Shown here piece after piece: positions 699 to 56,300 of a stretch of 64,000 nucleotides of DNA. The stretch is taken from assembly GCA_001785615.1 (NCBI GenBank), contig MFUG01000016.1, forward strand, positions 13,752 through 77,751, written 5' to 3'. The DNA comes from Candidatus Nomurabacteria bacterium RIFCSPHIGHO2_02_FULL_42_19. Lineage in GTDB: Bacteria; Patescibacteriota; Minisyncoccia; Phycocordibacterales; UBA9973. The translations under genes and the position numbers were made by a program. Numbering within the stretch: the stretch's first letter is position 1; every line of letters starts with the position of its first letter. The notes below the pieces were generated by a model, which was not told the origin of the DNA, made no database searches, and saw nothing but the letters and a program-made list of their open reading frames with translations.

Positions 699-1418
699 TT
701 ATATTTTTCCCATAAAAACACGCTCTAAAATATCACTCTTGGCGATATTAGAACCAGTATCAGTAGCAACAATTTTGCCGTGAACCAACACATATGCGCG
801 ATTAGTAATCGGAAGAAGTGAGTGAAGGTTGTGTTCAACTACAAGAATAGCTGTTTTTTTATTTTGATTTATATCTTTAATCGTCTGAAATATTTCTTTG
901 ACAACTTTAGGTGAAAGGCCAAGCGTCGGCTCATCAAGAAGAAGAAGTTTTGGCTCTGTCATAAGCCCGCGAGCAGTGGAGAGAAGTTGTTGTTGCCCCC
1001 CAGAAAGAGTTCCAGCTAATTTATCGTGTTTCGCATGAAGTGCAGGAAAAAGATTAAAAAGATGTTCTGCTCGGCGCATGCATTCTTTATTATCCTTCAA
1101 AGAATATCCGCCAAGCTCTAAATTTTCCTTAACTGTTAAATTATTAAAAACCCTTCTCCCTTGTGGCACATATGCTACTCCCATTTTCACAAGCTCGTGT
1201 GGAGAAGGATATATTTTTTCTCCTTCTAAAAGAACATCGCCTATATGCGTTATCAATCCGAAAATTGCTTTTAAAATTGTTGACTTTCCGGCTCCGTTTG
1301 GACCCATTAATGCCACGATTTCTCCTTCGTCTATTGCAAGAGAAATATCGTGAATGATTTTTGTTTCATTATATCCAGCCGAAACATTTTTTAATTCAAG
1401 TAATAATCCTTTTTCCAT
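699..1418 (-). CDS. livF: branched-chain amino acid ABC transporter ATP-binding protein (LivF-like)
   Basis: Walker A GPNGAGKST, ABC signature LSGGQQQ, Walker B LLLLDEP. Last gene of a 5-gene Liv-type operon. Confidence 0.8.
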   Translation of the reverse strand: MEKGLLLELKNVSAGYNETKIIHDISLAIDEGEIVALMGPNGAGKSTILKAIFGLITHIGDVLLEGEKIYPSPHELVKMGVAYVPQGRRVFNNLTVKENLELGGYSLKDNKECMRRAEHLFNLFPALHAKHDKLAGTLSGGQQQLLSTARGLMTEPKLLLLDEPTLGLSPKVVKEIFQTIKDINQNKKTAILVVEHNLHSLLPITNRAYVLVHGKIVATDTGSNIAKSDILERVFMGKI

Positions 1419-1430
1419 ATCTTTAATATT

Positions 1431-2165
1431 CTATTCACCTAAATACGCTTCTAAAACAACTCTTTCAGTAAGTACTTTTTCGGGATGTCCTTCTGCTAAT
1501 AATTTACCTGCATCCATAACAATGAGATGGTCGCATAAATTTCTAATTATATTCATATTGTGTTCTACTAAAACAATTGTTTTTCCTTCTTGTTTTAATG
1601 CCTTGATAATATTTTCAATTTTTTTGATAATCTCTGGGAAAAGTCCAGCGAAGGGTTCGTCAAAAAGAATAATTTTTGTATCCATCGCTAGTACTCGCCC
1701 AATCTCTAGAAGTTTTTTCTGTCCATATGAAAGCTCTCCGGCATTATGGAAACGTTTTTCAAATAAATCAACTTGTTTCAAAATATCTTCAGCCTGACTA
1801 ATGTGATATTTGCTATGACGTTCAAAAAGTGCGAGAAAGGGATTACGCTCAGTTATTATTACTAAAATATTATCCAATACGCTCATTTGATCAAAAAGCT
1901 TAATCTGTTGAAAAGTGCGTGTGATATTATAAATCTGATTTTCCCAAGGCGTAATTTTTTTCCTTTCAGCACCTCCGAAAAATACTGATCCGCCGTCATG
2001 TAAAGAAAACCCCGATAATAAATTAATAAGTGTTGTTTTCCCGCTACCATTTGGACCCACAAGCCCAGTTATCTGCCCTTCTTGAATATTAACAGATAGG
2101 TGATCAACAGCGTGCACTCCGCCGAATGATTTTATTAATTCTTTTGTTTCAAGAATATTTTTCAT
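1431..2165 (-). CDS. livG: branched-chain amino acid ABC transporter ATP-binding protein (LivG-like)
   Basis: GPNGSGKTT Walker A, LSYGQKKLLEIGR signature, ILFDEP Walker B. Confidence 0.8.
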   Translation of the reverse strand: MKNILETKELIKSFGGVHAVDHLSVNIQEGQITGLVGPNGSGKTTLINLLSGFSLHDGGSVFFGGAERKKITPWENQIYNITRTFQQIKLFDQMSVLDNILVIITERNPFLALFERHSKYHISQAEDILKQVDLFEKRFHNAGELSYGQKKLLEIGRVLAMDTKIILFDEPFAGLFPEIIKKIENIIKALKQEGKTIVLVEHNMNIIRNLCDHLIVMDAGKLLAEGHPEKVLTERVVLEAYLGE

Positions 2166-3028
2166 AACTTATATTGACCTAAAATTCCTTTTGGTCGGTA
2201 AAGCATTAAGAAAACAAGCAAAAGTCCATATATGCATTGTCGCATAAGTCCTGCAATTTCGTTTGGAAATCCAAAAAATCGCAATGCTTCGGGAATTGTT
2301 ATTAGAAGCAGAGCCCCCAGCAATGCCCCACGATTTTTCGCTATGCCACCGAGAATAATCATCGCCCAAAGAAGAATGGACTCATTCACAGTAAATAAAT
2401 TTGCATCAATAAAAGTTATATAACTTGCCAAAAGCACTCCGCCTAAAGACGAGAGCATTGCGCCAATTACAAAAACCATTAATTTATAAGTTGAGGTTTT
2501 ATACCCAAAAATTTTTAAAGCATCTTCATCTTCCCGAATGGCATTCAAAACACGTCCAAAAGACGAACGAGAAATAAAATAACAAATCCCTATGACAATA
2601 AAAAGAACAATGAGCGCAAGGACAAGGAAAGAAAAAGGTGTATCAAAAGTTAAACTAAAAATATGCGGCTTGGGGATTCCAGCTATACCGAAAGATCCGC
2701 CGGTTACATTTTCCCAATTTCTAACAACAGTATTAAAAATCATTAAAAAGCCAAGGGTCGCAAGCAGAAAATAATCATCACGAAAGCGTGCAAAACTTAT
2801 TCCAATGCCAAGAGCAATTAATCCCGCAACTATTGGCGCAATAATTAAAGTTGTAAAAATATTAAAGCCAAATGCTGTAGCTAAGATTGCCGCTGTGTAA
2901 GCGCCGATTCCATAAAAAGCGGCCCCAGCAATAGTAAGTAGTCCAGCCGATCCCATTACTAAATTTTGGGCAAGAGCTAAAATGCCGTAGATAGAGATAA
3001 GTATAGTGATGTGAAAAATATACTCCAT
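2162..3028 (-). CDS. livM: ABC transporter permease (LivM-like)
   Basis: Multi-TM hydrophobic protein of HAAT permease size. Lies between the LivH-like and LivG-like genes, with a 4-nt overlap to livG. Confidence 0.7.
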   Translation of the reverse strand: MEYIFHITILISIYGILALAQNLVMGSAGLLTIAGAAFYGIGAYTAAILATAFGFNIFTTLIIAPIVAGLIALGIGISFARFRDDYFLLATLGFLMIFNTVVRNWENVTGGSFGIAGIPKPHIFSLTFDTPFSFLVLALIVLFIVIGICYFISRSSFGRVLNAIREDEDALKIFGYKTSTYKLMVFVIGAMLSSLGGVLLASYITFIDANLFTVNESILLWAMIILGGIAKNRGALLGALLLITIPEALRFFGFPNEIAGLMRQCIYGLLLVFLMLYRPKGILGQYKL

Positions 3029-3029
3029 A

Positions 3030-3893
3030 TCATTTTTTTAATATTCCTTCTGGCCTCACTAAAAGCACAATGATAAGAATTACGAATGGCACTGCTTGTT
3101 CCCAGCTTCCCCCAAAAAACACAACAGTTAATTTTTGCGCTATTGCTAAAATGAAAGCGCCGATAATCCCGCCCCAAAAACTTCTTATTCCGCCAAGTAC
3201 AGATATAACTATTACTGGAAGCATAAAGAGTAGTCCGGAAGCTGGTACAATACCCACATTCAATCCTTGAATTATTCCACCCAAGCCCGCAAGCGCTCCC
3301 CCAATAAAGAAAAGTTGGGAAAATATTTTTCCTTTGGGTATGCCTACGAGCTCTGCTACTTCACTATCATCTTCCACTGCCCTAATTACACGCCCAAAAT
3401 GTGTTTTGAAATAAATAAAAGCAAAAATACAGATCAGAGTAAAAATAATGATAATAGCTAATGCCTCTACTATATTTAATGTTCCGCCAAAGATATTTAA
3501 AGAATGAATATCGCTCAAACGACGCGCAATGATCGTAGCTTGGCTACCAAAAATCATACCTAACACGGAAGATGTAGCGGTTAGAAAACCAAAGGAAGCA
3601 ATCAGGAGAACGAAGTTGTTGGCTTTTCGATTGATAAGGAAACTAAAAATAAATTTATGTGATAAAAAAAGATATAACCCTGAAATAAAAAGGCTTAGAA
3701 AAATAGCGGGGATAAAAGAAATAACAAGCACGCGGTAAAATAAAAACATCATGTACCCCCCAACGAGGAACGCTCCACCATAAGCAACATTAAAAAACTT
3801 CACGCTACGTAAAATAAATCCAAAACCTATAACTAATAAAGAGTATAAAACGCCAGCATAAAGGATATATAAAATTATTTGCCAAGTTATCAT
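3030..3893 (-). CDS. livH: ABC transporter permease (LivH-like)
   Basis: Multi-TM permease adjacent to the substrate-binding protein gene. Operon order SBP-H-M-G-F. Confidence 0.7.
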   Translation of the reverse strand: MITWQIILYILYAGVLYSLLVIGFGFILRSVKFFNVAYGGAFLVGGYMMFLFYRVLVISFIPAIFLSLFISGLYLFLSHKFIFSFLINRKANNFVLLIASFGFLTATSSVLGMIFGSQATIIARRLSDIHSLNIFGGTLNIVEALAIIIIFTLICIFAFIYFKTHFGRVIRAVEDDSEVAELVGIPKGKIFSQLFFIGGALAGLGGIIQGLNVGIVPASGLLFMLPVIVISVLGGIRSFWGGIIGAFILAIAQKLTVVFFGGSWEQAVPFVILIIVLLVRPEGILKK

Positions 3894-3967
3894 CGTGTTT
3901 TGCCTGCTAATTATACAACAAAACGAGCCACATGTGGCTCGTTTTGCATACTCTAAAGCGGTAAGTA

Positions 3968-5110
3968 TTACTGAGACACTTCCGTTAGTTTTCCGCCCAA
4001 AGCTCTTTTGATAATGTAAGCCGCTGTTGTAGGATCACCATTATTATCAAACATAACTTCCGCTGAACCAACTCCGCCTGTGTATTTAATTTTGGATAAT
4101 GCATCTTTAACTGCTGTTTTACTTACTGAATCAGCTTTATTTATTGCAGCCGCCAATATTTTCAATCCATCGTAGGCATAATTAGAACAGTAAATAAGAT
4201 CATCTTTCCCAAGTTTTGCTTTCATCTTTGCCTTAAAATCTGCGCTTGAATTTGTACCAACAACAGTAAACATTGCTCCGTCGCCGAGAGTTCCTAATTC
4301 ACTCCAAATTTTTGTATCATCCCAAGCATCAGCTCCGAAAAATTGCGCCTTGATTCCGAGATCGTGTGCTTGCTTAAGACCAGCGATTGAGGGATCTGTA
4401 TAACCCGCAAAATAAACTGCATCTACATTCATTCCTTTAATCGTAGTAAGTTGTGCTTTTAAATCTTTTGACGCAGGATCAAATGAATCAGACGAAACAA
4501 TTACACCGCCTGCTTTGGTAAATGCATCAGTAAATGCCTTTTTTAAACCATCACCCCAATCATCCTTACTGGTAAGCAGGGCAACATTTTTCATACCTTT
4601 GCCCATTAAATAATTTGCTGCGTAGTTCGCTTGAAAGAAATCAGAGGGAACATTTCTAAATATATAATCTCCTGCTTGGCTGACAGTTGGGTTAGTAGAA
4701 CAATAAGAGAGCATGGGAACTTTTGCCGCTTCAGCAATAGGCGCTGCGCCAAGGGTTGCTCCTGAACATGCCGCTCCTAAAATTGCCACAACTTTATCCG
4801 TATTTATAAGTTTTGATACTGCGTTAGCTGCAGTAGCGCCACTACAACCATCATCTTCATAAATTACTTCAACATTCTTACCCAATACTCCTCCGGCATT
4901 ATTTATTTCATCAACTGCAATCGCTATAGCTGCTTGGGCATTTTGTCCGATGTTGGCTGTATCGCCAGAAAGCGGTCCCATGAAACCTATTTTCACAGTT
5001 TCAGAATCAGTGCCACTTTTCTTAGACATTGAAGATAACCCAAAAATAACAAGAACTACAACCACTATCCCCACAACAATTTTCGCTGTTTTATTCATAA
5101 ATAATAGCAA
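3968..5110 (-). CDS. ABC transporter substrate-binding protein (type I periplasmic binding fold, Liv family), N-terminal membrane anchor
   Basis: N-terminal TM segment. Motifs KIGFMGPLSGDTA..GQ and FAGYTDP are typical of LivJ/K-like binding proteins. Confidence 0.75.
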   Translation of the reverse strand: MLLFMNKTAKIVVGIVVVVLVIFGLSSMSKKSGTDSETVKIGFMGPLSGDTANIGQNAQAAIAIAVDEINNAGGVLGKNVEVIYEDDGCSGATAANAVSKLINTDKVVAILGAACSGATLGAAPIAEAAKVPMLSYCSTNPTVSQAGDYIFRNVPSDFFQANYAANYLMGKGMKNVALLTSKDDWGDGLKKAFTDAFTKAGGVIVSSDSFDPASKDLKAQLTTIKGMNVDAVYFAGYTDPSIAGLKQAHDLGIKAQFFGADAWDDTKIWSELGTLGDGAMFTVVGTNSSADFKAKMKAKLGKDDLIYCSNYAYDGLKILAAAINKADSVSKTAVKDALSKIKYTGGVGSAEVMFDNNGDPTTAAYIIKRALGGKLTEVSQ

Positions 5111-5190
5111 CTTAAAACTAATAATAGACCAAATAATAAAATGCGTAAATCTTACATTATTCTATATAATATAAACTAATTGTCAACATA

Positions 5191-5238
5191 TTTTTAAAAA
5201 AGATGGCCACGCGGTTCCCGTTAGGGTTCCGCGTGGCC
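5191..5238 (-). terminator. rho-independent terminator (minus-strand sense)
   Basis: Perfect 10-bp GC stem ggccacgcgg/ccgcgtggcc (5205-5238). On the minus strand it is followed by ATCTTTTTTAAAAA. Confidence 0.6.
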
Positions 5239-5418
5239 GGCGATCAGAACACGCTGTTAATGCCAGCGCCTGCAAGACGGGCACGGAATTCGCCCATCCC
5301 CTTTCCACTATCGCGCGCCAGCGCGCGACCGATTTTTTCGCAGAAGTTCACGATTGTCCGTCCTCTTGGACTCGAATCCCGAAGAAAAGCATAACTTTCT
5401 ACGGGACAGGCCAAGAAC
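5239..5418 (-). ncRNA. GC-rich hairpin-dense element downstream of the tRNA (candidate structured ncRNA, identity unknown)
   Basis: About 180 nt at roughly 60% GC in an AT-rich genome. It carries several perfect GC stems (tcgcgcgc/gcgcgcga) and tRNA-T-arm-like GGACTCGAATCC. It sits between the tRNA and the terminator with no credible ORF. Confidence 0.3.
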
Positions 5419-5493
5419 TGGTGCACGTGCCTGGACTCGAACCAGGAACCTGTCGCGTATAAGGCGAAAGCTCTACCATTGAGCTACACGTGC
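5419..5493 (-). tRNA. tRNA-Ile (anticodon UAU), CCA encoded
   Basis: Reverse complement is GCACGTG-TA-GCTC-AATGGTA-GAGC-T-TTCGC-CTTATAC-GCGAC-AGGTT-CCTGG-TTCGAGT-CCAGG-CACGTGC-ACCA. Clean 75-nt cloverleaf with a 27:43 mismatch. Central loop triplet is TAT. Confidence 0.7.
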
Positions 5494-5526
5494 ATGTTTC
5501 AATACTACAAAATTATGGGGAAAAAG

Positions 5527-7452
5527 CTAGCTGGCAACTTCAAGCTTCGCTTTTTCTTCTCGTTTCTTCGGTATTATGCCGTGAGCGATTATTATTTTTT
5601 CGTATTCTTCTTGTTCCAAGGTTTCAACTTCAACGAGCTTTTGGGCAATAGCGTCAAAGGCCTTGCGGTGTTCTTTAAGCACACTCCCCGCGGACGCTAT
5701 TCCGTTGTTTATTATCTTTAAGACCTCCGCATCCACTTTCGCGGACACTATTTCCGAATATCCTTCTTCCCTAACTTCGCCCCATTCCACTCTGCGGCCA
5801 CCACGGTCGAGCGCCACTGGACCGATAACATCCGACATCCCGAAGCGGGTCACCATCGCCCGAGCTAAATTCGTCGCTACCTGAAGATCGCTAGATGGCC
5901 CTGTGGTGATATCCCCGAAAATCATTTTTTCCGCTACGTATCCGCCTAAAGACATGGCAATATCGTCGATGAATTCTTTTTTGGACTGAAGGCGCTTCTC
6001 TTCAATCGGCAATTTCAAAGTATAGCCCCCGGCGCTCCCGCGAGCGATAATGGAGACCTTGTGCACTGGATCAGCATAAGGTAAAACGGAAGCGACCAGG
6101 GCATGTCCGGCTTCATGGTAAGCGGTAATTTCTTTTTCTTTTTTAGAAAGTAAGTGGCTTTTGCGTTCCGGGCCGAGCATTACTTTCTCAATCGCCCGAA
6201 TGAGGTCAAATTGGAAGACCTTTTTGCGGTTTTCGCGAGCGGCCAGAATCGCGCCTTCATTCATCAGGGAATATAAATCAGCGCCGGAGAATCCCGGCGT
6301 GCGCTCGGCAATTAATGTTAAATTAATATCTTCCGCCAGTGGCTTTTTTACGGCATGAATTTTTAATATCTCTTCTCGATCTTTGCGATCCGGCATGTCT
6401 AGGAGAACTTTCCGGTCAAAGCGTCCGGGGCGGATCAGAGCCGGGTCAAGCACATCGGGCCGGTTGGTCGCCGCCATTACAATAACTTTTTCATTCGGTT
6501 CAAAGCCGTCCATTTCCACTAGAATTTGATTTAGGGTTTGCTCGCGTTCGTCATTCCCTCCGCCAAAGCCGCCCCCGCGAGTCCGCCCGATGGCGTCTAT
6601 TTCATCCACGAAGATAATGGCCGGAGCCGCCTTTTTCGCCATCTTAAATAAATCGCGCACGCGGGATGCGCCCACTCCCACAAACATCTCAACAAATTCA
6701 CTGCCAGAGAGATGAAAGAATGGCACATTGGCTTCGCCGGCGACGGCGCGAGCGAGCATCGTTTTTCCCGTTCCGGGTGCTCCTGTCAGTATTACGCCTT
6801 TCGGAATCCTGGCGCCAATATCCAAGAACTTTTTCGGGCTTTTCAAAAAATCCACGATTTCTTTCAATTCTTCTTTCGCCTCTCGGCAGCCGGCCACATC
6901 CTTGAAAGTTACTTTATTATTTTTATCGTTCGGGTCAGTGATGCGCGCCTTGGACTGGCCGAAAGTCATGGCCTGAATGCCGGCGCCTTTTACCTGGCGC
7001 GATAAATACCAAAAGAAAAATACAATAAACAAAATCGGCAAGAGGAAAGGCAAAATATTCAGAAGCCAAAAACCAAAACCGCTTTCATTTTTTACTTCGA
7101 TGGCTGTGCTCGAAAGCGCTTCAGGCCCTACCCCATAGTTAAAGAGTGTCTGGGAAAGCGAAGACCCGGTTTCTTTCTTGGACTGTTTTATTTCTTTGTT
7201 TTTATAAGTAATAGTTAGTTTTTCTCCCTCCACTAAAATTTTGGCCACTTCGCCCGCACTGACGCTCTTCGCCAAGTCCGAAATAGCTACTTCGGGCATC
7301 TCTTTTGCGGTGTCGGAGACCACTAAATAAAGTCCAGTAATGAGCATGAAAATCAAGAGCGCTCCAGCAATATTGCCCGAGAATTTGCTCCTGCTATTCC
7401 CCTTTTTCATTTTATTCGGCTCACTGTTCTGGCCCAGAAAGTTAAAATCCAT
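5527..7452 (-). CDS. ftsH: ATP-dependent zinc metalloprotease FtsH
   Basis: N-terminal TMs, AAA Walker A GAPGTGKT, second region of homology, HEAGHA zinc motif. 641 aa. Confidence 0.95.
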
Positions 7453-7516: not shown

Positions 7517-7963
7517 ATGGCTCATTACGCCGAAAACAGAAAAGCGCGATTTAATTATGAAGTATTGGAAAAATACGAGGCGGGTATTGAGCTTTTCGGT
7601 ACGGAAGTAAAGTCAGTGCGAGGAGGGCAGATGTCGCTCGAGGGTGCCTTCGTGATTGTTCGCGGTGGAGAAGCGTATTTAATTAATGCAAATGTTCCTT
7701 CATATCAGCCGAAAAACGCACCGAAGGACTACGATCCTTTACGCAATAGAAAACTTTTACTGACAAAAAAGGAAATTTCCACACTTTCGGGTAGCGAGAA
7801 AAATAAAAGTTTGACAATTGTGCCTATTTCAGTGTATAATAAAGGGAGGAAGATAAAGGTAGAAATTGCACTCGTGAAAGGGAAGAAAAAATATGACAAG
7901 CGTGAGAGTATAAAGAAGCGCGACACGGATCGTGAGATACGAAGAGAGTACAAAGCACGTTGA
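7517..7963 (+). CDS. smpB: SsrA-binding protein SmpB
   Basis: ENRKARFNYEVLEKYEAGIELFGTEVKSVR is the canonical SmpB N-terminus. Ends with TGA stop. Confidence 0.92.
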   Translation: MAHYAENRKARFNYEVLEKYEAGIELFGTEVKSVRGGQMSLEGAFVIVRGGEAYLINANVPSYQPKNAPKDYDPLRNRKLLLTKKEISTLSGSEKNKSLTIVPISVYNKGRKIKVEIALVKGKKKYDKRESIKKRDTDREIRREYKAR

Positions 7964-7975
7964 AAATAGAAACAT

Positions 7976-8373
7976 GGGGATGCAAGGCCTAGACAGTTGG
8001 CCTCTTGCCCTTGATGCATACCGAGCATGGGCGTAATCTCGTAAAACTTCGCTCAATAGCTTAATTGCAAAATTAGCTTCCAAAGTGAAGGCAATTGCTT
8101 CTCCGTACTTCGGTATGGGTGAGTTTGCTTTCGCTCACGTTTCCGCTTCGGCTTAAGCGTGTGTCTCTCTTATTGACTTCCGATAAATAAGACGGGCATA
8201 ACATTATCGGGATAGCCCCGACGCGGCTTCGCCGTCGGGGCAAAACATAGAAGATCGATTGAAAAATATTTGGCGCGTTTCTTAATTTTTTAATTTAAAC
8301 CTGCAAGCGCGCTATGTATGTAGATTTTAAGGCAGGCACCTTCTGCACGGGGATTCGATTTCCCCCATCTCCA
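7976..8373 (+). ncRNA. ssrA: tmRNA (ssrA)
   Basis: 5' GGGGAUG pairs with 3' CAUCUCC-A, including the G3:U70 alanine identity pair. The 3' T-arm is GGGGA-TTCGATT-TCCCC. GAUGCAUACCGAG matches the conserved PK1 region (E. coli GGUGCAUGCCGAG). In-frame tag ORF GCA..GCT TAA gives AKLASKVKAIASPYFGMGEFAFAHVSASA*. Lies immediately downstream of smpB. Confidence 0.8.
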
Positions 8374-8385
8374 CAATCATTGGTA

Positions 8386-8441: not shown

Positions 8442-8720
8442 ATGACCACACAAGTAATTTTTAGAATAGATAAGAAGATTAAAGCCCAAGCTCAAAAGAA
8501 AGCCAAAGGTAGCGGTTTAACCTTTTCTGATATTTTGCAAATGGCGACTTATGCCTATGTTAAAGACGACTTTGAGCCCGTGTTAATGCGAAAAGAGGAA
8601 AGATTTAACGACAAAACGGCTCGCGAAATTCATTCAGCCCTTTCCGATATTGCTAAAAACAAAAATCTATCCCGTAGTTTTTTCTCTGTGAAAGAAGCTA
8701 CAAAATATCTCAGTAAATAA
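8442..8720 (+). CDS. RelB/DinJ-family antitoxin
   Basis: MTTQVIFRIDKKIKAQAQKKAKGSGLTFSDIL matches the DinJ/RelB RHH pattern (xxVxxRIDxxxKxxAxxxxxxxGLTxSd). Stop is 1 nt before the toxin ATG. Confidence 0.75.
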   Translation: MTTQVIFRIDKKIKAQAQKKAKGSGLTFSDILQMATYAYVKDDFEPVLMRKEERFNDKTAREIHSALSDIAKNKNLSRSFFSVKEATKYLSK

Positions 8721-13321: not shown

Positions 13322-13927
13322 TCAAATGTGATTTAGATTGTATCGTTTCATTTTCTCCTTAAAATCTAAAAAGGTGGTGTAGAGTTCCGCATTAATACCA
13401 AAATCTTTTGCCCCTTTTATGTTTTTCGGGTCATCATCAAAAAATAATATTTCTTCTTTTTTCATATTATTCAAATCTTTCATCATTTTTTCAAAAAATT
13501 CTTGGTTCGGCTTCTTATCCCCCAAATGAGCCGAAGAATACGTCTTGTCAAAACTATTTGCGAAACCTATTTTTTCGAGTATATATTGAAAACGATATTT
13601 TTCATTATTTGTCGCAAGATAACACAATATCCCCCCTCTTCTTAACTCCCCTACATATTTAACCAATTCTTCATCGGTAATGTGCTCGGCCTGGAACCAA
13701 AAATCTAAAAAGGCATCTACTCCCTTAGCCCAACCCCAAGCGGACAGATATGGGGAAATGGTTTCCTTTAAGTCGGCTTTACCGATCAGGCAATCCTGAA
13801 AAGGTCCATTGAAAAATGGAAGTGTTTTTTCCAAAGGAATTCCGTATTTTTCCGCAAGCAGAATACTAAATTTTCTTTTGCTGTGAATTAATACCCCGTC
13901 TGCGTCAAAAATAATTACCTTTATCAT
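13322..13927 (-). CDS. HAD-superfamily hydrolase
   Basis: N-terminal IIFDADGVL (DxDG motif I) and C-terminal FFDDDPKN (motif IV). Confidence 0.75.
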   Translation of the reverse strand: MIKVIIFDADGVLIHSKRKFSILLAEKYGIPLEKTLPFFNGPFQDCLIGKADLKETISPYLSAWGWAKGVDAFLDFWFQAEHITDEELVKYVGELRRGGILCYLATNNEKYRFQYILEKIGFANSFDKTYSSAHLGDKKPNQEFFEKMMKDLNNMKKEEILFFDDDPKNIKGAKDFGINAELYTTFLDFKEKMKRYNLNHI

Positions 13928-13930
13928 AAA

Positions 13931-14291
13931 TTATTTCATACCGAATTTCTCATATAACATAATATCGTACTTACCATCGATAATTCGGTCTTCTTTTTTC
14001 ACACCTAGCGTTTCCAGAAAATTAAAAAGTTCTTCTTGGGTCTTTTTTCTGTCTTCTTTATCTTCGCTTTTTACAATTTTTTCTGCCTCAATAAACTCGC
14101 CTAAATCTTTCACGCTATCTAAAACAATTTCTATCTTTCAATTCTATAGGTGGCGGAAAATCCACTCCTTCCGGAATGAAAATGTGGTCAACTTGATGTA
14201 ACTCTTCGGAGAATTTACAGCCGAAACTTTCTAATTTTTTTATTACTTCTTTCCTATTTCTTAACCGCGCCTTTACTTCGACTTCATACAT
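13931..14291 (-). pseudogene. CYTH-domain (CyaB/thiamine-triphosphatase-like) gene remnant, split by a frameshift
   Basis: Piece 1 (14115-14291) MYEVEVKARLRNRKEVIKKLESFGCKFSEELHQVDHIF..ELKDR* matches the CYTH N-terminus (EhEhK motif). Piece 2 (13931-14113, GTG start) is a CYTH C-terminal-like fragment (DLGEFIEAE....LGV). The two are 1 nt apart in different frames. Confidence 0.6.
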
Positions 14292-55740: not shown

Positions 55741-55764
55741 TGTGTCTAAAGTATACCAATTTTT

Positions 55765-56300
55765 TTATATAAAACAAAAGCATAAACTAGTTCGCGCCGG
55801 GGGTCTTTGGGAAAAGACCGCGACCGGCGCGAATGTGTGATGGGGGGTTTGTCCCCTAGTCTCGACTGTGCCCATCGGGACCGTTGCCTTGAGCCGCGAG
55901 CGGATTATTGTTGGCCTCCCGTCGTTCTCGACGGTGGTGGTCACGAGCCACGTTCGGTGCCCACTGTGCGATCCGCTCCTCGACGGTGGGCGCCGGCGAG
56001 GGAGGGTCGATTTGGAGTACGGATTCTTGTCTGTACCTCTCAAGATGTTTCCTTGACATTATCTCTCCCTTCTTCCTCGTTAACGACTCGCTGGGCCGTA
56101 GGAAGTGGGTGCCGTGCCCTCCACGCGGGATCACGCAACCATTCATCCTCTTGATGGCATTGGTTCAGATGAAGTATCTTCGCCATGCCCTCGTCTGAGA
56201 CGGGCTTCATGTTCATGGGACCTCCGAAAATAAGAACGCAGAAAACACAACCTAAAATATACTCCCAAAAACACAAAAAATCAACGGTGCCCAGAGGGTT
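55765..56300. other. GC-rich (~60%) island with overlapping SD-preceded small ORFs (56040-56216, 55856-56059, minus strand); foreign-composition DNA
   Basis: Composition break, nested hairpin ttcgcgccgg..ccggcgcgaa. GGAGG-N4-ATG precedes MNMKPVSDEG...; a second ORF, MSRKHLERYRQ..., overlaps it by 20 nt. Confidence 0.4.

Follow-up and report, generated by a model that had tools for sequence, protein, structure and literature searches.

A tRNA-Ile with a genome-encoded UAU anticodon is uncommon across bacteria generally and is known from a few bacteria that lack tilS; the tRNAIle2(UAU) of Mycoplasma mobile, M. suis, Bifidobacterium and Neorickettsia is the closest described counterpart of the gene treated here (Taniguchi et al. 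2013, PMC3575796). Partial tRNA 3' ends beside an intact tRNA gene are known from the integration sites of islands, prophages and tycheposons (bioRxiv 10.1101/2020.12.28.424599), and a serine recombinase gene between identical inverted sites is the arrangement of Hin/Gin invertible segments and large serine recombinase (LSR) integrases. We analyzed a tRNA-Ile(UAU) gene and the ~180-nt GC-rich tail that follows it in a 64,000-nucleotide stretch of Candidatus Nomurabacteria bacterium RIFCSPHIGHO2_02_FULL_42_19 (GenBank assembly GCA_001785615.1, contig MFUG01000016.1, positions 13,752 to 77,751; this whole stretch is called the window below). Our reading, to which we assign a probability of roughly three in four, is that the tail is a functionless composite relic, made of the stump of a displaced tRNA and the truncated arm of an LSR cassette and closed by an ordinary terminator, and that it stands behind a working tRNA-Ile(UAU).

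The tRNA gene itself is canonical. ARAGORN and Rfam fold it into a full-length cloverleaf with UAU at positions 34-36 and a single mismatched pair (27-43), and the Rfam tRNA model gives it 70.4 bits against a gathering score of 29 (span 5422-5493), so that an earlier note on this DNA, made from its letters alone, was right to report a clean tRNA-Ile with UAU after ftsH. Its sequence has A73, C4-G69, U12-A23, C29-G41 and A37, which we take to be the Ile identity elements of Escherichia coli. The gene lies 33 nt behind the ftsH stop codon on the same minus strand, and a tRNA with anticodon tat is likewise found at most 2.5 kb downstream of ftsH, usually on its strand, in 73 of the 80 closest genome loci (metagenome-assembled genomes of Candidatus Nomurabacteria, Paceibacterota or Patescibacteria with FtsH identities of 70-86%; these are the 80 relatives referred to below). 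AUA accounts for 325 of the 1190 Ile codons (27%) in the 54 long open reading frames (ORFs) of the window. Because this synteny and this codon use together mark it as a normal and needed gene of the clade, we regard the window's tRNA-Ile(UAU) as a working, lineage-typical gene, not a one-off mutation or a pseudogene, and it is predicted to decode AUA, a codon common here. The earlier note had also called such a tRNA rare in bacteria, which is true in general (PMC3575796) but does not make it an oddity of this genome, since most of its relatives carry it.

How does the gene compare with those described before? It resembles the tRNAIle2(UAU) of PMC3575796 in being a bacterial elongator tRNA with UAU encoded in the genome, in that it would read AUA without lysidine, and in being kept throughout a lineage with reduced genomes; it differs in that the commoner allele of the present clade (below) has an unusual C1-G72 acceptor end. 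It adds a lineage to a decoding solution already known, and the list of bacteria in which AUA is decoded by a UAU tRNA, and not by a CAU tRNA modified with lysidine, grows by a large uncultured clade. In the Nomurabacteria clade the UAU tRNA is the rule at a fixed locus, which raises the question of whether tilS and a tRNA-Ile(CAU) are present and how misreading of AUG is avoided. ARAGORN found no CAU tRNA in the 64-kb window, and none of its ORFs of 150 aa or more has an SGGxDS PP-loop; for the whole genome the window alone is uninformative on both counts. Our search of the literature on tilS and lysidine in the Candidate Phyla Radiation (CPR) gave nothing that ties tRNA-Ile(UAU) to CPR.

Two kinds of tRNA-Ile(UAU) allele are found at the ftsH locus. 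The commoner one, present in most relatives (L006-L085), is 75 nt long, starts with CCGYCCT and ends with AGGRCGG-A-C, and has a C1-G72 pair and no encoded CCA. The rarer one, with G1-C72 and an acceptor of the GCACGTG or GCGCGTG kind, is present in L010, L012, L048, L061 and L062 and, as GCACGTG, in the window. Here the intact gene is of the rarer kind and the tail behind it contains the 3' end of the commoner kind: tail positions 46-69 (window 5353-5376) read TTCGAGT-CCAAG-AGGACGG-A-C-AAT, which matches the tRNA-Ile(UAU) 3' ends of ~40 related loci at 83-96% over 21-24 nt, and the 21-mer of the stump occurs once in the window, with 0 copies expected by chance. Judged by this homology, 5356-5376, an exact match to T-loop, T-stem and acceptor 3' end of the commoner allele, is the remnant of a tRNA-Ile(UAU) of that allele that no longer has a complete cloverleaf. 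The T-arm-like motif picked out in the earlier note, GGACTCGAATCC (5368-5379, plus strand), is indeed the complement of the true T-loop of this displaced allele. The note's idea of a degraded tRNA-like element is correct for 5353-5418; the origin of the middle of the tail in a recombinase cassette (below) it did not anticipate. A second or split tRNA in the tail was rejected, as neither ARAGORN nor Rfam calls one. Fragments of tRNA 3' ends directly after the tRNA are also present in L010, L012, L062, L077 and L082, and the ftsH/tRNA-Ile locus is evidently a site where tRNA copies get displaced.

Two short pieces separate the stump from the live tRNA. Directly after the latter's CCA stands GTTCTTGG, which pairs in the predicted fold with CCAAG at 5365-5369, and L010 has the equivalent AGTTCCTAGG after its own tRNA; these eight nucleotides could be the variable region and 5' T-stem of the commoner allele, for which they alone are weak evidence. 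A 34-nt insert follows, which has AAAGTTATG in common with the same position in L010, where the overall layout is also alike. The insert resembles the 5' body of the old tRNA no more than expected by chance, 75% of shuffled sequences reaching its score. At the other end of the tail, the 18 nt of 5239-5256 have no homologue in 213 loci, phages or plasmids.

The middle of the tail was identified by blastn: 5257-5359 (tail positions 46-148) is 86% identical over 103 nt to L106, L171 and L143 (E = 1e-29), with weaker matches in L136, L135, L195, L091, L099, L039 and L068 and, beside tmRNA, in L052, L116 and L140. In the complete examples this sequence is one arm of a cassette that has an LSR gene between inverted repeats (below). 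The window arm runs from its start, GGAC (5359), to ~5257 (~column 100 of the alignment), and then diverges from all 12 other arms. At the protein level, tblastn with the LSR C-terminus aligns with 5262-5375 on the plus strand (76% over 38 aa, E = 1e-11), and the plus strand of the relic corresponds to the last ~38 codons of the recombinase frame. The rest of the recombinase was found by tblastn nowhere in the 64-kb window, no second arm was found there, and the promoter-like GGTTCGCGCAAAG module of the cassettes is absent from the window beyond chance level. Because recombinase, second arm and promoter module are all missing, the window holds a relic and is not itself a member of the cassette family. 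In all 13 arms a block of 30 nt that surrounds the palindrome TCGCGCGC-NN-GCGCGCGA is invariant, and at least 120 metagenome contigs contain a 19-mer of this core; read along the plus strand, the core is a hairpin with T6, which gives a terminator-like call at 5311-5328. Coding constraint in the arm was considered and rejected: the window and L106 arms have 14 differences, distributed 6/3/5 over codon positions with no coding pattern, and the arm pairs have only a weak excess of third-position changes (sum ~58/54/86, the pairs being non-independent).

The parent cassettes found in relatives are ~1.7 kb long. In L106, L195, L171, L207-L210 and L213 the intact arms are inverted repeats of 115-118 nt that are 97-100% complementary and 1466-1471 nt apart, and the one gene between them encodes an LSR of ~515 aa with the Pfam domains Resolvase, Recombinase and Zn_ribbon_recom. 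In complete cassettes one arm always starts 4-7 nt inside a tRNA 3' end; the tRNAs abutted in this way are Ile-UAU, Arg-GCG, a 'Stop' call that is probably Lys-UUU and, with arms of 126-147 nt, Ala, Ser and Thr. The recombinase gene converges on the tRNA, and its frame stays open across the arm and enters the antisense of the tRNA; the far arm is preceded by a promoter-like module, CTCGAAAAAGGTTCGCGCAAAG..TAnAAT. All 13 arm-flanked cassettes observed have the same orientation relative to the tRNA. A related unit in L144 has the tRNA between promoter module and arm and the recombinase in the same direction, and L052, L075, L116 and L140 have a single arm beside tmRNA on contigs that end in or near the arm, with no second arm seen. 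Proteins of the recombinase family number at least 6680 in CPR at E <= 1e-20, many of them on 1.7-2.5-kb contigs, and are annotated at the source only as 'recombinase family protein'.

A model in which the parent arms are attL and attR, produced by recombination of a palindromic attB with a palindromic attP, was rejected: both L106 arms read ...GCGCGC-TT-GCGCGC... in the tRNA-to-recombinase direction, and the same central dinucleotide in both arms makes them genuine inverted repeats like those of invertible segments or of transposon ends. Neither the viral contigs nor the loci examined contained an attP-type palindrome. The cassettes share with Hin/Gin invertible segments and LSR integrases a serine recombinase gene between identical inverted sites, and with Hin/Gin-type systems a short palindrome around a central dinucleotide in each site; they differ from Hin/Gin in that the arms are 115-147 nt long where hix/gix sites are ~26 bp, in that the enzyme is an LSR, in their single orientation, and in the recombinase frame that extends into the tRNA antisense; the window preserves only a relic of such a cassette. 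Our search of the literature on serine recombinases with tRNAs and inverted repeats in CPR found no description of the cassettes.

Table 1. Features of the locus and of related loci (positions are those of the window unless an L number, which denotes a locus of the comparison, is given)
Feature	Position	Strand	Characteristics and evidence
Sigma-70-like promoter	5159-5186	minus	TTGACA, 16 nt, TAGAAT; promoter scan, 11/12 matches
Intrinsic terminator of the ftsH/tRNA unit	5196-5238	minus	10-bp GC stem, inner 3-bp stem, T6
GC-rich linker between arm relic and terminator	5239-5256	minus	no homologue in 213 loci, phages or plasmids
Truncated tRNA-proximal LSR cassette arm	~5257-5359	minus	blastn, tblastn, alignment
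Invariant arm core	5311-5339	.	GAAAAAATCGG + palindrome TCGCGCGC-TG-GCGCGCGA; invariant columns in 13 arms
Displaced tRNA-Ile(UAU) stump	5356-5376	minus	T-loop TTCGAGT, 3' T-stem CCAAG, acceptor 3' strand AGGACGG, A, C
34-nt hairpin-forming insert, CCTGTCCCGTAGAAAGTTATGCTTTTCTTCGGGA	5377-5410	minus	fold; between the two halves of the old T-arm
GTTCTTGG fragment	5411-5418	minus	like variable region + 5' T-stem of the commoner tRNA-Ile allele; read from sequence and fold
tRNA-Ile, anticodon UAU	5419-5493	minus	ARAGORN (tat); Rfam RF00005; encoded CCA at 5419-5421
FtsH, 641 aa	5527-7452	minus	Pfam AAA + Peptidase_M41
~1.7-kb LSR cassettes	L106:226-1926, L171:1648-3348, L195:1-1702, L209:60-1760, L207:2823-4529, L213:50-1748, L146:370-2047, L160:2532-4206, L150:4725-6471		
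Hairpin-promoter module	L087, L088, L095, L104:9429-9726 and 13728-14025, L109, L144:1020-1240, many of L086-L205		
~78-nt post-tRNA motif	L013:4576-4651, L015:4544-4618, L020:4538-4615, L022:4544-4620, L038:3102-3177, L047:3774-3851; also L025, L079, L084, L085, L091		

Decayed cassettes are found in other genomes as well. Solo arms that are truncated in other ways stand after tRNA-Ile in L099 and L030 (a solo arm in L039 is cut by the contig end), and in L068 the GC palindromes of two arms are fused, the recombinase gene between them being deleted. We rejected L068 as an excised empty site, a deletion between the GCGCGC repeats of two arms being the better explanation. The examples of L099, L030 and L068 indicate that cassette decay is recurrent and that the window is one outcome of it.

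The tail ends in an intrinsic terminator that, like an ordinary Rho-independent terminator, closes the tRNA unit with a GC hairpin and a T run, and that differs from it by an internal bulged 3-bp stem extension. GGCCACGCGG (5229-5238) pairs with CCGCGTGGCC (5205-5214), the T6 (5196-5201) lies three nt past the stem, and the fold has an energy of -28.2 kcal/mol (z = -5.4), which bears out the 10-bp GC hairpin with T6 described in the earlier note; a simple terminator scan missed the hairpin solely because its loop is longer than 8 nt.

Observed directly are the gene call for the tRNA, the sequence homologies, the lack of a recombinase gene in the window and, in the arms, the lack of covariation of the RNA kind (below). 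From these we infer a sequence of events, and also that the tail is transcribed and then removed in the course of ordinary tRNA 3' processing, as follows: A commoner-allele tRNA-Ile(UAU) would have left its 3' stump when the present allele took over the locus. An LSR cassette would once have abutted the 3' end of this old tRNA, and later deletion of its recombinase gene would have left ~100 nt of an arm. The strong intrinsic terminator would now close the transcription unit, so that transcripts coming in from ftsH, or starting at a promoter immediately before the tRNA, would contain the tRNA plus a ~220-nt trailer that ends at the hairpin and T6; the tRNA would be excised by normal processing and the trailer discarded. 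The GC content and the stems of the tail would be inherited from the tRNA fragment and the GC-rich recombination arm.

Several points weigh against this reading. The 30-nt invariant core is intact in the window and could be bound or cut by a recombinase from elsewhere. Five contigs from different samples (the five read of the 12 contigs, from groundwater-type metagenomes, that encode an identical FtsH protein) have the tail in 100% identical form, so that no close relative shows decay, an observation that says nothing either way on constraint. The AAAGTTATG junction motif shared with L010 could mean conservation and not shared descent. Finally, the account leaves the 34-nt insert, the GTTCTTGG fragment and 5239-5256 unexplained and gives no route for the replacement of the old allele.

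The first of these points leads to the alternative that survives best, namely that the arm relic is a live DNA site and that its core at 5311-5339 is bound by an LSR from another part of the genome or from the community, for docking or recombination beside the tRNA. The core, GAAAAAAT.GGTCGCGCGCT..CGCGC, is invariant over the 13 arms as well as intact here, the recombinase family has very many members in CPR, and cassettes are found at several different tRNAs, all of which would suit such a site; but the 64-kb window contains neither a recombinase nor a partner site, the distal 20 nt of its arm have diverged, and the core is only putatively the part that the enzyme recognizes. We consider a live site unlikely.

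Could the tail instead be a functional structured non-coding RNA (ncRNA), co-transcribed with the tRNA and freed by tRNA processing? The earlier note had raised this possibility on the strength of a structured tail of ~180 nt with ~60% GC. The tail is GC-rich, but the measured value for 5239-5418 is 55.6% (window mean 41.6%, sd 6.8% in 180-nt windows). It is also structured as claimed, the fold of 227 nt (-98.2 kcal/mol, z = -3.97) beating all 200 shuffles. Its placement between tRNA and terminator, the AT-rich genome around it and its identity in five samples would fit an ncRNA too. Against it, the opposite strand folds at least as well (z = -4.97), which points to palindromic DNA content and not to a strand-specific RNA. 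A search of 5150-5530 against Rfam 15, at the gathering threshold and at E <= 10, passes only the tRNA, so that the comparison with Rfam proposed in the note gave no family for the tail; the best other match, YrlA (14.9 bits against a gathering score of 69, E = 2.6), overlaps the tRNA and is a chance one. In the 13 aligned arms RNAalifold predicts 13 pairs and there is no compensatory one among them (covariation term +0.76, unfavourable); the five invariant pairs are the GC palindrome itself, and, this palindrome apart, most minimum-free-energy stems of the window tail are not conserved in the other arms. The homologues are moreover DNA inverted repeats that occur in both orientations around a recombinase gene, and the two ends of the tail have no homologue of any kind. 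Such a pattern of conservation appears to fit a protein-binding DNA site better than an RNA, and we give the ncRNA suggestion little credence. High GC and good folding beside a tRNA in an AT-rich genome call for caution, since a scar left by mobile DNA can have both without being a new RNA.

No match to the tail was found in phages or plasmids, and in the window it is single-copy, with no within-window repeat family. A phage or plasmid origin was rejected, as only the tRNA part matches phage tRNA-Ile genes (the best phage-record matches are annotated as tRNA-Ile, with 76-77% identity).

On the far side of the terminator, a five-gene liv-type ATP-binding cassette (ABC) transporter operon follows directly after the tRNA trailer on the minus strand (window 699-5110). 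A binding protein (Peripla_BP_6) and two permeases (BPD_transp_2) are identified by Pfam, and the other two genes are putative ATPases, going by N-terminal nucleotide-binding motifs only. None of the 80 relatives has the operon at this position or the same downstream neighbour as the window; the operon may be a block acquired at a tRNA-adjacent break point. The near-consensus promoter at 5159-5186 would serve it and marks the outer limit of the feature studied here. The tail as a leader or riboswitch for the transporter was rejected, since the strong terminator and then this promoter intervene.

The locus resembles the integration sites of islands, prophages and tycheposons (bioRxiv 10.1101/2020.12.28.424599) in its partial 3' end beside an intact tRNA, in being a synteny break point and in the site-specific recombinase remains adjacent to it; it differs in that the intact tRNA is no chimera but belongs to another allele from end to end, in that the fragment bounds no island, and in that the associated recombinase family is of the serine type and flanked by inverted, not direct, repeats. 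That the stump is the att end of a classical tyrosine-integrase island with the liv-type operon as its cargo is very improbable: a tRNA 3' fragment beside an intact tRNA, and downstream binding-protein and permease genes that are syntenic in none of the 80 relatives, would be expected of such an island, but the window contains no second copy of either tRNA 3' end (allowing <=3 mismatches), there is no integrase nearby, the ORFs of 699-5110 are ABC-transporter-like, and the stump, at a distance of only 45 nt from the tRNA, does not lie where the far end of an island would. A small protein encoded on the plus strand of the tail (a 63-aa ORF at 5203-5394, or a frame open from 5196 into the tRNA) is the least probable reading, for although open frames are present and one has homology to the C-terminus of the recombinase, Pfam matches none of the small ORFs (63 aa and 60 aa) of either strand, the homologous frame has neither a start codon nor an upstream gene and differs from L106 without the pattern of a coding sequence (6/3/5, above), and GC-rich DNA is stop-poor anyway.

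If the tail is a composite relic, the cassettes of the relatives are the more interesting lead and deserve a separate look. It is quite possible, if a little short of probable, that the tail is the footprint of undescribed and very abundant ~1.7-kb LSR cassettes of CPR/Patescibacteria, with inverted repeats of 115-147 nt, that together with homing-endonuclease-like genes across the tRNA drive a turnover of tRNA alleles, and that the window preserves one cycle of it, in which an old allele was displaced and the cassette decayed. Free-standing homing endonucleases can carry flanking alleles along. A gene with a GIY-YIG domain (78 aa, Pfam E = 1e-16) lies between ftsH and the tRNA in L010 (4461-4697), and a helix-turn-helix protein of ~220 aa (221 aa) is encoded in the same interval in L012 (4507-5172), L106 (2042-2704) and L209 (1835-2491); judged by eye, it has a LAGLIDADG-like 'LYWAEG' motif. 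Such genes could be the cause of tRNA allele replacement, which we offer as a lead only. Small, selfish-looking genes account for a longer gap between ftsH and tRNA, 0.3-1.3 kb, in about a dozen loci.

Other recurrent elements were noticed in the related loci. A ~78-nt conserved motif, TTGTCCGAGGCG...GAGCCGGGGTCGCGCAAAAATTCAGCAGAATTTTATGTGTGACGGACAA, follows tRNA-Ile(UAU) immediately in many relatives; it contains two internal hairpins plus a closing stem whose 3' strand repeats the 3' end of the tRNA, has no Rfam match and is not present in the window. An abundant module of ~200-300 nt consists of a long hairpin with GAAAAAATYGGTCGCGCGC at its tip and then a promoter-like CTCGAAAAAGGTTCGCGCAAAG..TATAAT; it stands upstream of recombinase or tRNA genes, sometimes as 100% identical inverted pairs ~4 kb apart. 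A small GC palindrome (CCTGCCTGCCGGCAGGCAGG and variants), observed in L082 (4378-4490), L084 and L200, is inserted in the T-loop of a tRNA remnant and in other elements too, and may be a miniature palindromic repeat of these genomes. The tRNA at L210:1832-1905, which ARAGORN calls 'Stop (tta)', has an alternative register of the anticodon stem that gives the loop CUUUUAA, and it is probably Lys-UUU; two partial direct repeats of its 5' end lie just upstream of it.

Within the window, a stretch of ~500 nt at 55760-56280, near a tRNA-Leu, is ORF-poor and has a GC content above 56%, and nothing in Rfam matches it at E <= 0.4; a structured RNA that has escaped recognition, or a piece of high-GC DNA from a foreign source, could account for it. 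Divergent from ftsH are smpB (7517-7963) and the tmRNA gene (7976-8376, 108.6 bits). The 3' end of this tmRNA has no recombinase-cassette arm, and the tmRNA 3' ends of some relatives have one. Next after smpB and tmRNA comes an ORF for a RelB-like antitoxin (8442-8720).

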